Part shown: piece after piece, positions 1 to 7,457 of the stretch
How positions within the stretch are numbered: the first letter of the stretch is position 1
Layout: each line of letters opens with the position of its first letter
NCBI GenBank assembly: GCA_012646845.1
Contig: GCA_012646845.1_4707.1
Length of the DNA stretch: 48,431 nucleotides
Source of the DNA: a phage
Direction: 5' to 3' (one strand)
The notes under the pieces: model-generated
Told to the model about the DNA's origin: nothing
The model's database searches: none
What the model saw: the letters and a program-made list of their open reading frames with translations, nothing else
Made by a program: the position numbers and the translations under genes

Positions 1-723
1 CAGGGTACACGTCTTGGCGGATACGCTTATCGCAAAGTGGTTCCTGATAGCGGGTTTACACCGCAATTGTATCGTCATCGTGCTATCATGTTAGCGTTTA
101 CGAGATATGACGCTAACGTTGTTAACTTAACCGTGAACCATAAGAACGGAATTAAAGGTGACGATTGGTTTGATAACCTCGAATGGGCGACATATGCTGA
201 GAACAATCAACATGCTCGTATGGCAGGGTTGTGTATAGGTACATCAAAACCTGTTTTGGTTTATGATTACCGTGCACGAATCGAACGTCGTTTTAATAGT
301 ATCGCAGAAGCGGAACGTGCTTATCCGTACGTGCCGAAAGGACGTTTCAAATGGTGGGTGAACAATCCACCAAAACGTATTCCAGAATGCGATTTGTACA
401 TCAAGTTTGCCACGGATAATACGCCTTGGCCTGAGTGGAAACTCGGAGAAGATCGTCGCGTCGAGGACACCGATGGTCGTGGTATTCTTGCTATTAATAA
501 AGAGACGAACGAGCGACATGTGTTCCCATCGGTAACTGCTGCTGCAAATGCGTTAGGAATCTCCTGGATTACCGTAAGACGTCATTGCGATCGTCGTGCA
601 GTGCCTACGAAACAACCTTGGTGTTTTCGTTATGCTGATGATATTGCCGCCATGCCTGATTTCGATGTTAATAAATTAGTTCCTAAGAAGAAGCGTGTAT
701 TTAATGTTCCATTAGAACGATAA
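1..723 (+). CDS. HNH homing endonuclease (5'-partial; frame is open to position 1)
   Basis: HNH-type motif VNHKNGIKGDDWFDNLEWATYAENNQHA plus a C-terminal DNA-binding repeat-like segment (GILAINKETNERHVFPSVTAAANALGISWITVRR); reading frame continues upstream of the window. Confidence 0.8.
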   Translation, partial: QGTRLGGYAYRKVVPDSGFTPQLYRHRAIMLAFTRYDANVVNLTVNHKNGIKGDDWFDNLEWATYAENNQHARMAGLCIGTSKPVLVYDYRARIERRFNSIAEAERAYPYVPKGRFKWWVNNPPKRIPECDLYIKFATDNTPWPEWKLGEDRRVEDTDGRGILAINKETNERHVFPSVTAAANALGISWITVRRHCDRRAVPTKQPWCFRYADDIAAMPDFDVNKLVPKKKRVFNVPLER

Positions 724-1199
724 CAGGTCCCCCTACTTGTAATGAGTGGGTGAACTCTCTTTAATTGCTGGAAACCTTTAATGCCCCTCCACACCACAAC
801 GCAATCCGAAAGGGTAAACGTGATGGTTGTCGAAAGACAGAAAAAAGTTGGAGGGGATTACCTATGTTGCAATAAAAGCCATCGCTTTCTTGGATAACGA
901 AAGGTAACGATGGTACTAAGGGTAGAAGATAGAAATAAGGTAACCGTAGCAGCGAAGACCCTACGGACTGTCGTGACCGACTCGATGAGTTGGCGTGGTT
1001 AACACGGACAGGCTACGGGTAACGTTCAACGACCATCTGGTTGCGCGGAGTAGGAGAATTAGGATGTTCTCCCAAAAGGGAGAAGTCGGTCGAGGTGTTG
1101 TAGAAACACCGTTTGGTTTGCTAACGCGAATCTAAGACAGGCTAAGATATGGTCTATTTTTCGTTGCGTTCATGTATAGAAATTACTGAACCATCGTAA
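724..1199 (+). ncRNA. putative group I intron catalytic core (P/Q/R/S-like elements)
   Basis: R-like GTTCAACGACCA (1024-1035) and S-like AAGATATGGTC (1144-1154) with compensatory change preserving P7 pairing (GACCA/TGGTC); P/Q-like AATCCGAAAGGGTAAACG (803-820) and GAAAGGTAACGATGGTA (~899-915); several local hairpins; no convincing ORF in 724-1199. Confidence 0.45.
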
Positions 1200-1241
1200 G
1201 AGCTCGATATATCTTCAAGTTATCCAAATGGGCAGATCCTG

Positions 1242-1457
1242 TTGAATCTATCCAGAGCGTGTGTTTTTCGTGAGCTCTCGCGCATTGAGGGCGTCTCTGA
1301 CTATCAATTCAGGAAGTTAGGTATCAACTTTATTACCGGAGGTAAAACGAACGCTGTAGACTTCTGTAGAATCGTTTATAAAGCACCGTCGATGTTCGAA
1401 CTCTTAGAACATTTCGATGCAACGCGTCCAAAAGGGGAAGCGCGGACCATCGAATGA
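1242..1457 (+). CDS. small ORF, possibly 3' exon of an intron-interrupted gene (frame open from 1200)
   Basis: ORF track; in-frame stop at 1197-1199 then open frame to 1457; followed by hairpin plus T-rich tract. Confidence 0.3.
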   Translation: MNLSRACVFRELSRIEGVSDYQFRKLGINFITGGKTNAVDFCRIVYKAPSMFELLEHFDATRPKGEARTIE

Positions 1458-1504
1458 ATCAAGTATGTTGATCATCGTTTAACAAAAAGAAAACGCATGC
1501 GAAG

Positions 1505-1542
1505 CCCCTCCCCCTGGCAGAAGCCGGAGGGAGGGGTGGGGT
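1505..1542. terminator. GC-rich hairpin between convergent genes (CCCCTCCC...GGGAGGGG) followed by T-rich tract on plus strand
   Basis: inverted repeat read directly; T-run 1543-1560. Confidence 0.5.
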
Positions 1543-3126: not shown

Positions 3127-3495
3127 TTAGTTGGGGTAGGATACTACTTGTTTACCATTTGGTGTATGCAGGATTACCGCTACCTCCAAAACGCGTTGTA
3201 CTGCACGTTCACGTATTTCATCGTAAATAAATAGTTTATGCGAAAAGTCTGCTGGTGTACTGACAACCGCATTGACTTCCACTCTATTCTCTACGTGGCG
3301 TACAACGATATGCTTCACGGGCCCTTCTTTAAGTGTAAGGCAATGCTCGGTAGTAAAACACCGATACTTGGGGCTCCATCTGTCGATATGTTCAAAGATA
3401 ATGGTGGCGATTTCTTTAGCGTCTTTTCTTGATCGTCTGAAATATCTATCAGTCCTATCAAGCATCGTGTTAGCGAGTTTAAAAGCCTTCTTCAT
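3127..3495 (-). CDS. hypothetical protein
   Basis: ORF track; AAGAGGGAGAT upstream of ATG. Confidence 0.6.
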   Translation of the reverse strand: MKKAFKLANTMLDRTDRYFRRSRKDAKEIATIIFEHIDRWSPKYRCFTTEHCLTLKEGPVKHIVVRHVENRVEVNAVVSTPADFSHKLFIYDEIRERAVQRVLEVAVILHTPNGKQVVSYPN

Positions 3496-3525
3496 ATCTC
3501 CCTCTTCTTAGCTACTTTAGGATGA

Positions 3526-4128
3526 TCACATGCTTTCTAGCATATTGACGATCATGGAACCCATACCGAAACTCGGTCTTTCACCGATGTACTCAGCAAG
3601 CTGGCGATGGACGTCTTTTGGATTTCCTTCTTCACCATCGGCGTCGATGTAAACCGAAAAAGAAAATGAATCGGAATCCACGCTGATAACCAGACGACGC
3701 TCATTGCGTTCCTTGAGTGTGTCGACAATAGCTGCTTTCAGTACCGCGATCGCGTTCATCGCGTGCAAGATATCCCCATCGGGTTTCGGCAGATCGATCT
3801 TTTCTTTCAGATCGATATTGATGTTGGTTACAATTGGGTTGAGGTCGACCTTGACATAATCGTTAGGGTACATGCGAATAATCGCACGATCGATATCTGA
3901 ACCGTAAAAGTCAACACGTGGCTTTAACACTTCTTTGTTTGGATCCATGTTTTCATCCATACCCGCCTGTAGAAAGCGTTCTACGTTATCCAGTTCACGA
4001 TAGATTGACGCTTCGATTTCTTTCAGATAGTTGGCTGCGGTTTCATGTTCTTTACGCAGCTCGTCTTTAAGGAGCTGTACGGTGGTTTCACTGGAACGAA
4101 TGCTGTTTGCGAATTGGGTAATTGACAT
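3526..4128 (-). CDS. hypothetical protein
   Basis: ORF track (TTG start at 4158); preferred ATG at 4128 with AAGGAA SD. Confidence 0.6.
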   Translation of the reverse strand: MSITQFANSIRSSETTVQLLKDELRKEHETAANYLKEIEASIYRELDNVERFLQAGMDENMDPNKEVLKPRVDFYGSDIDRAIIRMYPNDYVKVDLNPIVTNINIDLKEKIDLPKPDGDILHAMNAIAVLKAAIVDTLKERNERRLVISVDSDSFSFSVYIDADGEEGNPKDVHRQLAEYIGERPSFGMGSMIVNMLESM

Positions 4129-6155: not shown

Positions 6156-7457
6156 TTAACTAATATAAAGTTCAGGATCGTAAGGCGCTAACGATACACT
6201 GGCGTTATGCATTGCTTTCATCATAGTGTTCATGAAAACGTTGTTTACACCGGTGATCTCTGCCCCGATCGCGTCTGGGGTTGGAGCCATCGCGTTACCG
6301 CAACAGGTAGCACAGTATTCCAACGGACCCGCTTTACAGCGCTGAGGATCACGTAACTTGATGGTTTGTCCTTCCAAGGAAGCGAATAATTCAGCATCAA
6401 TAAGTTTAAGCGCTGCGCCATCGATCATGTAACGGCCGACGAGCAGTTTATCTTTGATGTGGTCGCGGTTTACCGTGAACAGAATATGTTCTTGGGTACC
6501 GCAGTCGTCCATCGTGATCTTAAGGTTCTGTGTTGCACGTTGCGATTCTTTAGCCGTTTGTCCAGCTAAAGCGGTCAACGCACCACGCGAGAACGAACCA
6601 GCACGTGCACTGTTGTTGTACTCCGCCCAATGGTCGACGCGCATCCCTTCGGCCAGGCTGTGCGTGATAACGTTACGTTTACCAGGGTCAACGAAGTCGG
6701 CTTCAACCCCCATCATGATGTGTGTTTTCTTTCGAGTATTACCGAAACTCTTACCGGGGTTAATATAGAACCCTTCCGATTCATCGCCCTTAAAGGATTC
6801 CTTATCCATTTTGGTTAGCGTGGCTTCGAGTTTGATCAGTTCTTCAGGCGTAAACTTACCTTCCTCTTGCAAGCGCGCTAACTCTTTATCACGATAGGCA
6901 ATAATATCATCATCGACCGTTAACGCTTTATCGCTCATTGAAGGCACAATTAAGCGGTTAATGGCGGTTAATGCGCTGATATTGTTGGTGAATTTCTTCA
7001 CCTCGCTTGCGTACAGTGGACCAATCGGACGTTCGTTAGGATCGGGTATTCCCTCTTCGGGATCATCTGCTACGCGCGGTGCAATCAGTGATTCTAGTGT
7101 ACCGCTGGTTAACCGTCCTGCCTGATATTCAATCTGAATACCGAAAGCGTCATAAAGGACGTACATATTGAACAACGCTTCACCGAAGGTTGTGGTGGTT
7201 GTGTTCTTAACCGACGGTAGATCGCCAGGCGCAAGCTCCAACGGATCCCAGAAATTCAACAAGGGTTTTGTTGGTTCTGTTTCCCATTGGTGTTCTTCAC
7301 CGTCGATGGTAACCGTAACGATGTTACCTTGACGACGTAATTTAGGCTGATACTTCTCAGCGCCGCCTTCCGTAAAAGCAAATGCGTCGTTAATCCACTC
7401 AAGATAACGGTAGTGCCCTTCACGCAACGCGTAAAGGAAATAATCACGAGGTGTCAT
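6156..7457 (-). CDS. multisubunit RNA polymerase beta-prime-like subunit, C-terminal fragment
   Basis: ITMDDCGTQEHI matches bacterial beta-prime VTEDDCGTHEGI; downstream C-x2-C-x-G (CATCCGN) and AIGAE segments at the spacing seen in RpoC; AAGGAG SD. Confidence 0.6.
   Translation of the reverse strand: MTPRDYFLYALREGHYRYLEWINDAFAFTEGGAEKYQPKLRRQGNIVTVTIDGEEHQWETEPTKPLLNFWDPLELAPGDLPSVKNTTTTTFGEALFNMYVLYDAFGIQIEYQAGRLTSGTLESLIAPRVADDPEEGIPDPNERPIGPLYASEVKKFTNNISALTAINRLIVPSMSDKALTVDDDIIAYRDKELARLQEEGKFTPEELIKLEATLTKMDKESFKGDESEGFYINPGKSFGNTRKKTHIMMGVEADFVDPGKRNVITHSLAEGMRVDHWAEYNNSARAGSFSRGALTALAGQTAKESQRATQNLKITMDDCGTQEHILFTVNRDHIKDKLLVGRYMIDGAALKLIDAELFASLEGQTIKLRDPQRCKAGPLEYCATCCGNAMAPTPDAIGAEITGVNNVFMNTMMKAMHNASVSLAPYDPELYIS

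Follow-up and report, generated by a model that had tools for sequence, protein, structure and literature searches.

The phage contig GCA_012646845.1_4707.1 (assembly GCA_012646845.1; 48,431 nucleotides (nt), hereafter the window) carries at positions 724-1202 what is very probably the catalytic core of a group I intron of subgroup IA. With comparably high confidence, comparison with related sequences indicates that this intron splits the gene for the family-B DNA polymerase in a Goslar-like, nucleus-forming jumbo phage of Escherichia coli, and that it holds its own HNH homing-endonuclease open reading frame (ORF). Bases 1-2060 of the window are 94% identical to Escherichia phage vB_EcoM_Goslar (Goslar), a nucleus-forming jumbo phage. 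In the public Goslar record, the first exon is listed as a 'hypothetical protein' (Goslar_00068) and the endonuclease as a separate gene, while the intron and the second exon carry no annotation. Mobile elements of this kind are well known; the place is new, and the intron was previously unannotated. Our search of the open-access literature found no account of an intron in this polymerase, and absence there is no proof. A first-pass annotation of the window, made from its letters alone, had proposed a group I core immediately downstream of an HNH ORF. That proposal is upheld by a full-length covariance-model match, by the joining of the exons, by an intron-less allele, and by covariation among introns at the same site.

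The interrupted gene can be recognised from what lies on either side of the intron. The first-pass annotation had noticed a stop codon (TAA, 1197-1199) followed by an open frame to 1457, and had offered the latter as a possible 3′ exon. Both are present, and the frame 1200-1457 matches in tblastn the C-terminal ~75 residues of a 'DNA polymerase' in 280 phiKZ-like jumbo-phage records. Protein homology and the intron-less allele place the start of exon 2 at 1203 and the 3′ splice site at 1202|1203. In Goslar, the protein encoded directly upstream of the HNH ORF (Goslar_00068, 499 amino acids (aa)) closes with ...IRLFVAD before a TAA; the corresponding stretch of uninterrupted homologues is ...H[VI]ADLDIVSTYPN.... 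Joining ...GCG GAT to CTC GAT... (window 1203) gives ...FVAD|LDISSSYPN..., and a one-base shift of either site gives AELD or ADFD. The predicted ligated Goslar junction is ...GTTGCGGAT|CTCGATATATCT... in DNA and LFVAD|LDISSSYPNGQILLNLSR in protein, with LFVADLDISSSYPNGQILLNLSR as the junction peptide. Since the joined exons restore the conserved polymerase frame, the intron would end at 1202 and the HNH ORF would lie inside it. The spliced product of 583 aa aligns over residues 8-576 with positions 5-570 of the 576-position profile PHROG 3011, 'DNA polymerase' (E 4e-178). By sequence, the interrupted gene is that of the chimallivirus family-B DNA polymerase (PHROG 3011; the phiKZ gp82 / 201phi2-1 gp144 family).

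Across the phiKZ-like jumbo group, 284 of 291 matching phage records are contiguous across this junction. The Goslar intron extends from 81,187 to 82,948 (1,762 nt, ~1.76 kb), its 3′ end corresponding to window 1202. It begins with an in-frame UAA, U precedes its 5′ splice site, and G is its final base. These boundary features recur widely: GAU| closes exon 1 in Goslar, L007, L021 and eight further same-site introns, and a terminal G stands directly before the Leu codon in all six same-site introns with a readable 3′ end. By homology with Goslar, the 5′ splice site is ~560 nt upstream of window base 1.

The junction is also documented by nature. When the predicted spliced product was used as a protein query, it matched P0001, a protein of 583 aa that is 99% identical to it at full coverage. 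P0001 is encoded by one uninterrupted gene on L011, a 237,273-bp Goslar-like metagenomic contig. The L011 junction DNA, ...GTT GCA GAC|CTT GAC ATT AGC AGT TCA TAC CCG... (flanks GTTGCAGAC|CTTGACATTAGCAGTTCATAC), encodes a peptide identical to that of the joined Goslar exons. Consequently, the L011 allele fixes the junction independently, and reveals a presence/absence polymorphism among near-identical phages.

The window edge cuts the HNH ORF, whose full form in Goslar is Goslar_00069 (396 codons, L001 5533-6723). In the window ORF, Pfam finds NUMOD1 (E 2.9e-7) and HNH_3 (E 3.4e-4), the former above its cut-off (31 vs 22.8 bits) and the latter just under (20.6-23.3 vs 24.8). The ORF further matches PHROG 59, HNH endonuclease (E 3.8e-18), and its HNH motif aligns weakly with I-HmuI (1u3e; E 0.54). 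The first-pass annotation had pictured the ORF as either free-standing or part of the upstream exon, and neither placement agrees with the Goslar arrangement. There, exon 1 ends ...FVAD-TAA at L001 5440, 92 nt before the HNH start codon, and the whole ORF falls within the intron, after the 5′ splice site and ahead of the helix P2. A free-standing gene beside a short ORF-less intron at ~724-1202 would explain why the Goslar ORF comes with a Shine-Dalgarno sequence and a start codon of its own, and ORF-less introns do exist at the same site (L014, L018, L019). This arrangement is nevertheless scarcely credible, as the host frame breaks upstream of the ORF and resumes only at window 1203, and the intron-less L011 allele is without the HNH ORF and the core together. 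As for an upstream exon, the ORF is not fused to exon 1 and has a different context. ORF-containing and ORF-less versions of the intron occupy the same site. The 92 nt between the Goslar 5′ splice site and the HNH start (L001 5441-5532) fold as a long hairpin, the 3′ strand of which includes the ORF's Shine-Dalgarno GAGG; L021 is without this hairpin, while its first 25 intron nt are unchanged.

The core itself is recognised by the Rfam group I model Intron_gpI (RF00028). An Rfam search had been put forward by the first-pass annotation as a check on its own proposal, and its outcome is divided: the match to 659-1179 is significant and full-length (model positions 1-253 of 253; 46 bits, E 2.4e-10 with 1 kb searched), and it lies 4 bits under the gathering score of 50 bits, a curated, operational annotation cut-off that is no biological criterion. 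The match surfaced only in E-value mode, where a search of the whole window returns it at E 1.2e-8 as the sole match in 48 kb. Related introns score alike (Goslar 44.7 and L007 47 bits), and the shortfall coincides with three long insertions, in P5 (158 nt), P6 and P8. The R-like word GTTCAACGACCA (1024-1035) and the S-like word AAGATATGGTC (1144-1154) stand where the first-pass annotation had reported them. As a pair at the observed spacing they occur once in the window and in none of 100 shuffles, and the S-like motif alone occurs once against 0.04 expected.

It could be argued that these words are a chance resemblance in an ordinary intergenic region or 3′ untranslated region, given that short motifs were chosen by eye and that two of the four, P and Q, were wrong. 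The full-model match, the joined exons, the intron-less allele and the covariation already refute this explanation, the probability of which we regard as negligible. In a scan of viral contigs, an exact 20-mer match to the R region at L006 3870-3889 was set aside as fortuitous. It is inside an unrelated protein-coding gene, and L006 has no similarity to the window and no intron match. The L006 match serves as a caution for short-pattern scans of large collections.

Folding, the Rfam alignment and comparison with relatives give the core helices in canonical order, including the P3/P7 pseudoknot (Table 1). The stretch beyond the HNH stop codon (721-723) has no long ORF, as had been stated from the letters alone. 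The P- and Q-like segments that had been proposed at 803-820 and ~899-915 are instead hairpins of the 158-nt P5 extension: the former yields a GAAA-tetraloop hairpin (804-815) and the latter is the 3′ strand of hairpin 878-914. By sequence and fold, the true P element AAUUGCUGGAAAC is at 763-775, comprising J3/4 and the P4 5′ strand, and the true Q element AAGGUAACCGUAGCAGC is at 937-953. The P7 helix comprises 1029-1035/1150-1155, with C1030 bulged and G1031 paired to C1154. By analogy with established group I architecture, G1031-C1154 is the predicted guanosine-binding pair. The earlier observation that compensatory changes keep P7 paired (GACCA/TGGTC) holds, and related introns have GACUA/UAGUC, GAUCA/UGAUC and GGCCA/UGGUC. 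Two helices, P7.1 and P7.2, lie between the P7 5′ strand and the P3 3′ strand, which places the intron in subgroup IA. The P5 extension is absent or much shorter in relatives.

Table 1. Features of the intron and its surroundings, in window coordinates
Feature	Position	Strand	Evidence
3′ two-thirds (240 codons + stop) of HNH/NUMOD1 homing endonuclease gene	1-723	+	Pfam, PHROG
GGUCC, probable internal guide sequence	726-730	+	conservation beside P2
P2 hairpin, CCUACUU-GUAAU-GAGUGGG	732-750	+	folding; homologous GUAA-loop hairpin before P3 in L014, L015, L019
P3 5′ strand CUCUCUUU, pairs with 1075-1082	755-762	+	covariance model, folding, covariation
J3/4 AAU (763-765), P4 5′ strand (766-771), J4/5, P5 5′ strand (774-778)	763-778	+	Rfam alignment, folding, comparative table
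P5 extension, multi-branched, two GAAA tetraloop hairpins and hairpin 878-914	779-936	+	folding
P5 3′ strand (937-941), J5/4, P4 3′ strand (944-951, GU bulge)	937-951	+	Rfam alignment, folding, comparative table
P6 (952-954/1023-1025 and 957-960/1016-1019), branched extension	952-1025	+	folding
P7 5′ strand; R element 1024-1035	1029-1035	+	Rfam alignment, folding, covariation
P7.1 (1036-1039/1046-1049) and P7.2 (1053-1059/1066-1072)	1036-1072	+	folding, covariation in relatives
P3 3′ strand AAAGGGAG	1075-1082	+	covariance model, folding, relatives
P8, enlarged to three-way junction with two hairpins	1084-1143	+	folding
J8/7 AAGAUA and P7 3′ strand UGGUCU, S element	1144-1155	+	covariance model, motif statistics
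Terminal P9 hairpin (1165-1193), 9-nt tail, terminal G1202 (omega G)	1165-1202	+	folding, protein homology, intron-less allele
Exon 2 of DNA polymerase gene, 84 codons + stop, starts LDISSSYPN	1203-1457	+	tblastn, alignment
GC-rich perfect hairpin (GCCCCTCCCCCTGGC...GCCGGAGGGAGGGGT), probable bidirectional terminator of polymerase transcript	1504-1537	.	sequence

Sequence changes among related introns follow the proposed fold. The Goslar-type set consists of five introns (window, Goslar, L007, L022 and L021, the last two from a metagenome scan). Across its 145 pairs (723 pair cells), 97.6% are paired, a value reached by none of 500 shuffles. Many changes within the set are one-sided and preserve a wobble pair, as in P8, while P2 is invariant. 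In the P5-extension stem 878-884/908-914, four of the seven pairs show compensatory double changes, and these are all the fully compensatory pairs of the set; the stem occurs as AUCG/CGAU, ACCG/CGGU, ACUG/CAGU and GUUA/UAAC.

More distant introns at the same site were found via C-terminally truncated metagenomic polymerase homologues that end ...HVAD-stop. Two exceed the Rfam cut-off: L015 (1,685 nt, with an HNH ORF; RF00028 89.3 bits) and L014 (372 nt, ORF-less; 79.7 bits). L018 (387 nt) and L019 (369 nt) are likewise ORF-less, L012 (2,434 nt; 29 bits) has an HNH ORF and a second ORF, and L013 (26.9 bits, a truncated match), L016 and L017 are cut by contig ends. The second ORF of L012 (6929-7576) encodes 215 aa, follows a 435-aa HNH ORF and has no Pfam match on record. 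In an alignment of five same-site introns, RNAalifold without guidance recovers P6, P7, P7.1, P7.2, P8 and three P9 hairpins, with compensatory changes at 29 of 48 pairs. Eleven tabulated helices, including P3-P8, P7.1, P7.2 and the last hairpin, are complementary and in canonical order in seven of seven introns. P3, P4, P6, P7, P7.1, P7.2 and P8 covary across the seven; P8 is a simple hairpin in the relatives. Thus P3 appears as CUCUCUUU/AAAGGGAG, ACUGCU/AGCAGU, GUUAUU/AAUAAC, UCUUUU/GGAAGA and CCUCUC/GGGAGG, and the P7.1 and P7.2 stems of relatives as UCCG/CGGA, UGGG/CCCA, GCC/GGC and GAGC/GCUC. The helix table was set by hand and checked by script, which brings some circularity, offset by the fixed spacing of the strands and by the unaided RNAalifold result. 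A MAFFT alignment of composite sequences misaligned P8 and S between the Goslar-type and the short introns, and was left out of the counts.

The helix that would define the 5′ splice site, P1, can be proposed from conservation next to P2. GUCC (727-730) can pair with the exon-1 end GGAU, forming a P1 with a U.G wobble at the splice site, and G726 can pair with C1203 of exon 2 to form P10. GUCC is found directly 5′ of P2 in seven of eight same-site introns, and downstream of the ORF in the ORF-containing members. In the ORF-less L014 and L019 the order is compact: 5′ splice site, a loop of 14 or 8 nt, GUCC, P2, P3. Further, the base before GUCC covaries with the first base of exon 2 as P10 requires, being G:C in four introns and A:U in L019. 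On the strength of GUCC conservation beside P2 and this P10 covariation, GGUCC is the probable guide sequence, and the ORF would occupy the P1 loop. A competing P1 outside the window, in which intron nt 9-17 GUUCUGUAA pair with exon UUGCGGAU over 8 bp with one bulge, belongs to a stretch of 25 nt at the start of the intron that is identical in Goslar, L007 and L021. It would put the ORF in a later joining region, and is kept as an alternative, although demoted by the conservation of GUCC next to P2 in the ORF-less relatives.

Structure prediction supports the assignment of the host protein, with a family-B fold of the N-terminal and 3′-5′ exonuclease domains. The AlphaFold model of P0001 is confident at residues 7-450, and its best Foldseek matches are RB69/T4 gp43 (E 2e-12, ~450 aligned columns), with polymerase epsilon and E. 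coli Pol II also found. In an hhalign comparison with E. coli Pol II, the Exo I, II and III motifs align as DIET, WN..FD and YN..D (E 0.0017). Against PDB chains, neither sequence nor profile comparison of the protein brought up a polymerase. The insertion falls between D499 and L500, two codons before D501, the invariant first residue of D-I-S-S-S-Y-P-N. D501, Y506 and P507 are invariant in 44 homologues, and are encoded only in exon 2. From its pattern and its position just past the exonuclease domain, the insertion site looks like polymerase motif A (D411-L-T-S-L-Y-P-S in RB69). The hhalign match covers the exonuclease domain only and stops short of D-I-S-S-S-Y-P-N, and the AlphaFold confidence (predicted local distance difference test) is below 50 at 495-526. 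Past D-x-x-S-x-Y-P, the chimallivirus 'DNA polymerase' continues for ~80 residues, a tail that is predicted to be disordered on its own. The remaining palm, the fingers and the thumb presumably reside on another chain, and the enzyme would then be a family-B polymerase that is split by nature.

All parts of the locus have diverged in ways that indicate constraint. Between the window and Goslar, codon differences are 13 synonymous to 1 non-synonymous in exon 2, and 40 to 0 in the HNH ORF; both are under purifying selection. The 479-nt core differs at 13 nt (2.7%), against ~5.5% in the coding flanks, where almost all differences are synonymous. The TTG at 1242, the sole start candidate for exon 2 in the ORF list, is CTC in Goslar. 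L021 is more distant: compared with the window, its surrounding DNA is 77% identical, its catalytic segments 95-96%, its peripheral hairpin tips ~62%, and its HNH protein 70%. This pattern of divergence indicates that the RNA is constrained as RNA, that the reading frame of exon 2 is in use from the first codon onward, and that the endonuclease gene is intact.

Several points weigh against a functional intron. The argument for splicing is built from DNA and protein sequence, folding and covariation. The window does not reach the 5′ splice site, the exon before it or the opening third of the ORF, all of which are placed from Goslar, L007, L021 and L022 (77-96% identical). A default Rfam scan of the window, which applies the gathering threshold, reports nothing, the score being 4 bits short. 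The catalytic helices are invariant in the Goslar-type group, so that covariation for these helices comes only from more distant, partly hand-aligned same-site introns. P1 is weak and has two candidates, GUCC pairing with the Goslar exon over 4 bp (P10 adding 2 bp) and the proximal site over 8 bp with a bulge. Finally, phiKZ has predicted intron endonucleases, gp56, gp72 and gp179, and no splicing was detected there by ONT-cappable-seq (PMC10914365), a caution that in this family a predicted intron is not yet a proven one.

Taken together with the large insertions in P5, P6 and P8, the sub-threshold score, the weak P1 and the phiKZ precedent (PMC10914365) could be accommodated by a decayed, non-splicing relic, with the polymerase existing as a truncated 499-aa exon-1 protein or with exon 2 made separately. 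We consider such a relic decidedly unlikely. Synonymous sites change ~10x faster than the core, in which substitutions preserve base pairing. Purifying selection acts on exon 2 from the first codon onward, and the TTG start at 1242 is not conserved. The invariant D501, Y506 and P507 would be missing from a 499-aa protein, since exon 2 alone encodes them, and U(-1) and the terminal G are conserved.

A functional intron would work as follows. The transcript would hold, in order, the 5′ splice site after ...GCG GAU (Ala-Asp), the in-frame UAA, the 396-codon HNH/NUMOD1 ORF, GGUCC, P2, P3-P9 and G1202. Once this pre-mRNA has folded, exogenous guanosine bound at G1031-C1154 in P7 would attack after U(-1), and the freed exon 1 would then attack after G1202. 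Ligation of the exons as GAU|CUC would yield the 583-aa polymerase ...FVAD|LDISSSYPN.... Without splicing, translation would end at the UAA, two codons short of the invariant Asp of D-x-x-S-x-Y-P.

Subgroup IA phage introns generally self-splice in vitro, and HNH endonucleases are not known to act as maturases. Both considerations speak against an otherwise genuine group I intron that depends on a protein helper for efficient splicing, be it its own HNH/NUMOD protein as maturase or a phage or host chaperone. We regard dependence on such a helper as unlikely, while noting what it would account for. In several members of the family, P1 extends over no more than 3-4 bp, and ~1.3 kb separates the 5′ splice site from the conserved guide sequence. 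Efficient splicing of T4 introns in vivo reportedly depends on translation (Sandegren and Sjoberg 2007, as cited in PMC10914365), and chimalliviruses separate transcription from translation (PMC12908238).

The same element is expected to be mobile. By analogy with I-HmuI and the PhiPA3 intron endonuclease, the HNH enzyme would nick the intron-less polymerase alleles of co-infecting relatives, and repair would copy the intron and short exon flanks into the nicked allele. The site flanks bear unusual traces. Within 45 nt on either side of the site (L011 4453-4542 vs L001 5396-5440 plus 7203-7247), 27 of 90 nt differ between the L011 and Goslar alleles, and the protein is identical. Over the rest of exon 1 only 43 of 1,452 nt differ (Fisher p 2e-17). 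The three serine codons are switched in codon family, being AGC AGT TCA in L011 against TCT TCA AGC (or AGY) in Goslar. L021, which is intron-plus, shares some of the L011 codons (ATT AGC AGT TCA), and the flank region is therefore a mosaic. Such recoding would be expected if a homing site had undergone repeated gene conversion, or if the endonuclease target were under selection, and proves neither.

In at least ten uncultivated jumbo phages, introns of a diverse family sit at the Asp|Leu codon boundary, suggesting an intron hot spot of long standing. Among other polymerase homologues, P0042, P0057, P0076 and P0117 end ...HVADLD, and P0064, P0093 and P0103 end ...ADLDV followed by a few odd residues. 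Such truncations 2-3 codons past the Goslar site suggest further insertion sites in the same motif. We speculate, by analogy with PhiPA3 and phiKZ, that the intron and its HNH enzyme act as a weapon of competition among co-infecting Goslar-like phages, that the recoding reflects a co-converted donor flank or an endonuclease-resistant target, that splicing proceeds without translation, and that the site is a hot spot; this joint reading is a tentative one.

Group I introns with HNH enzymes have been described before in phage DNA polymerase genes, as in SPO1/SP82 (I-HmuI, I-HmuII), Bastille (I-BasI) and Pf-WMP3 (I-PfoP3I), as listed in PMC12908238 and PMC11620839. The SPO1/SP82/phi-e and Bastille introns resemble the present one in residing in a phage DNA polymerase gene and in having an HNH-type endonuclease with NUMOD-like modules. 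As in the SPO1 group, where similar cores accompany much more divergent ORFs, identity to L021 is 95% for the present core and 70% for its HNH protein. The present intron differs from SPO1 and Bastille in its chimallivirus family-B polymerase lineage, its phage group and its host, and in having its ORF between the 5′ splice site and P2. A group I intron likewise interrupts the DNA polymerase gene of Pseudomonas phage LUZ24, its excision restoring the frame (PMC10914365); it differs in being a 669-bp element of a podovirus, in a family-A-type polymerase context.

Another close parallel is PhiPA3, in which the RNA polymerase gene holds a self-splicing intron with the HNH endonuclease gp210, which harms co-infecting phiKZ (Birkholz et al. 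2024, PMC11620839). Both cases concern a nucleus-forming jumbo phage with an HNH-bearing intron in an essential polymerase gene; in PhiPA3 the target is the RNA polymerase, and here it is the DNA polymerase. The Goslar enzyme shares 27% identity with an unannotated ORF of PhiPA3, not necessarily that of gp210. In phiKZ, of the same phage family, gp179 is 29% identical to the HNH protein described here, a likeness also given in the Goslar record. In contrast to gp56, gp72 and gp179 of phiKZ, the present case offers covariation, an exactly placed exon junction and an allele that naturally lacks the intron.

The T4 td intron (IA2) shares with this one the P7.1 and P7.2 helices between P7 and P3, an in-frame UAA at its start and a short P1, which in this family is a predicted one; the loop of the ORF-less relative L019 is 8 nt. 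The td intron also sits at a conserved motif, in a gene of nucleotide metabolism. In td the ORF is that of I-TevI (GIY-YIG) and occupies the P6 loop, whereas here an HNH ORF precedes P2. Compared with td, this intron has large P5, P6 and P8 extensions, and a P9 region reduced to one hairpin.

Unannotated group I introns were also seen at L008 ~3468-3787, L009 3451-3806 and L010 3431-3810 (Rfam 42.9, 42.3 and 54.7 bits). The protein upstream of the intron ends at the NADFDG motif of the RNA polymerase beta-prime subunit in Klebsiella phage Miami and Aeromonas phage pAEv1810, and in Vibrio phage pir03 the genes flanking the intron are annotated as that subunit. The P3-P5 segments of the Miami, pAEv1810 and pir03 RNA polymerase introns are 72-76% identical to the window intron, and this segment also resembles introns of Staphylococcus, Brochothrix and Listeria phages.

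The value of these results is mainly that they correct the annotation of a model phage and provide a testable E. coli counterpart to the PhiPA3 system. Goslar serves as the E. coli model for nucleus-forming jumbo phages, and its current polymerase gene model is wrong; recognising the intron corrects the sequence of an essential replication protein. For studies of how intron endonucleases interfere between jumbo phages, the locus adds a second case, one open to genetics in E. coli, and naturally occurring alleles with and without the intron are at hand, with a recoded target site. It is further a test case for group I splicing where transcription and translation are physically separated. As transcription takes place in a protein-walled nucleus away from ribosomes, the Goslar intron would have to splice without translation dependence of the T4 type. 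More generally, the default Rfam threshold misses phage group I introns that bear large peripheral insertions.

Beyond the polymerase gene, the hairpin at 1504-1537 sits between the convergent polymerase exon 2 and minus-strand genes, and attracts spurious miRNA and RsaJ matches in Rfam E-value mode. In Goslar, the minus-strand gene Goslar_00070 (L001 7543-8148) stands between the terminator and the next gene; the window at 1547-1559 is without it. The region 1559-2060 is only 89.6% identical to Goslar_00071. Downstream of the terminator there follows a series of small minus-strand genes of similar size.

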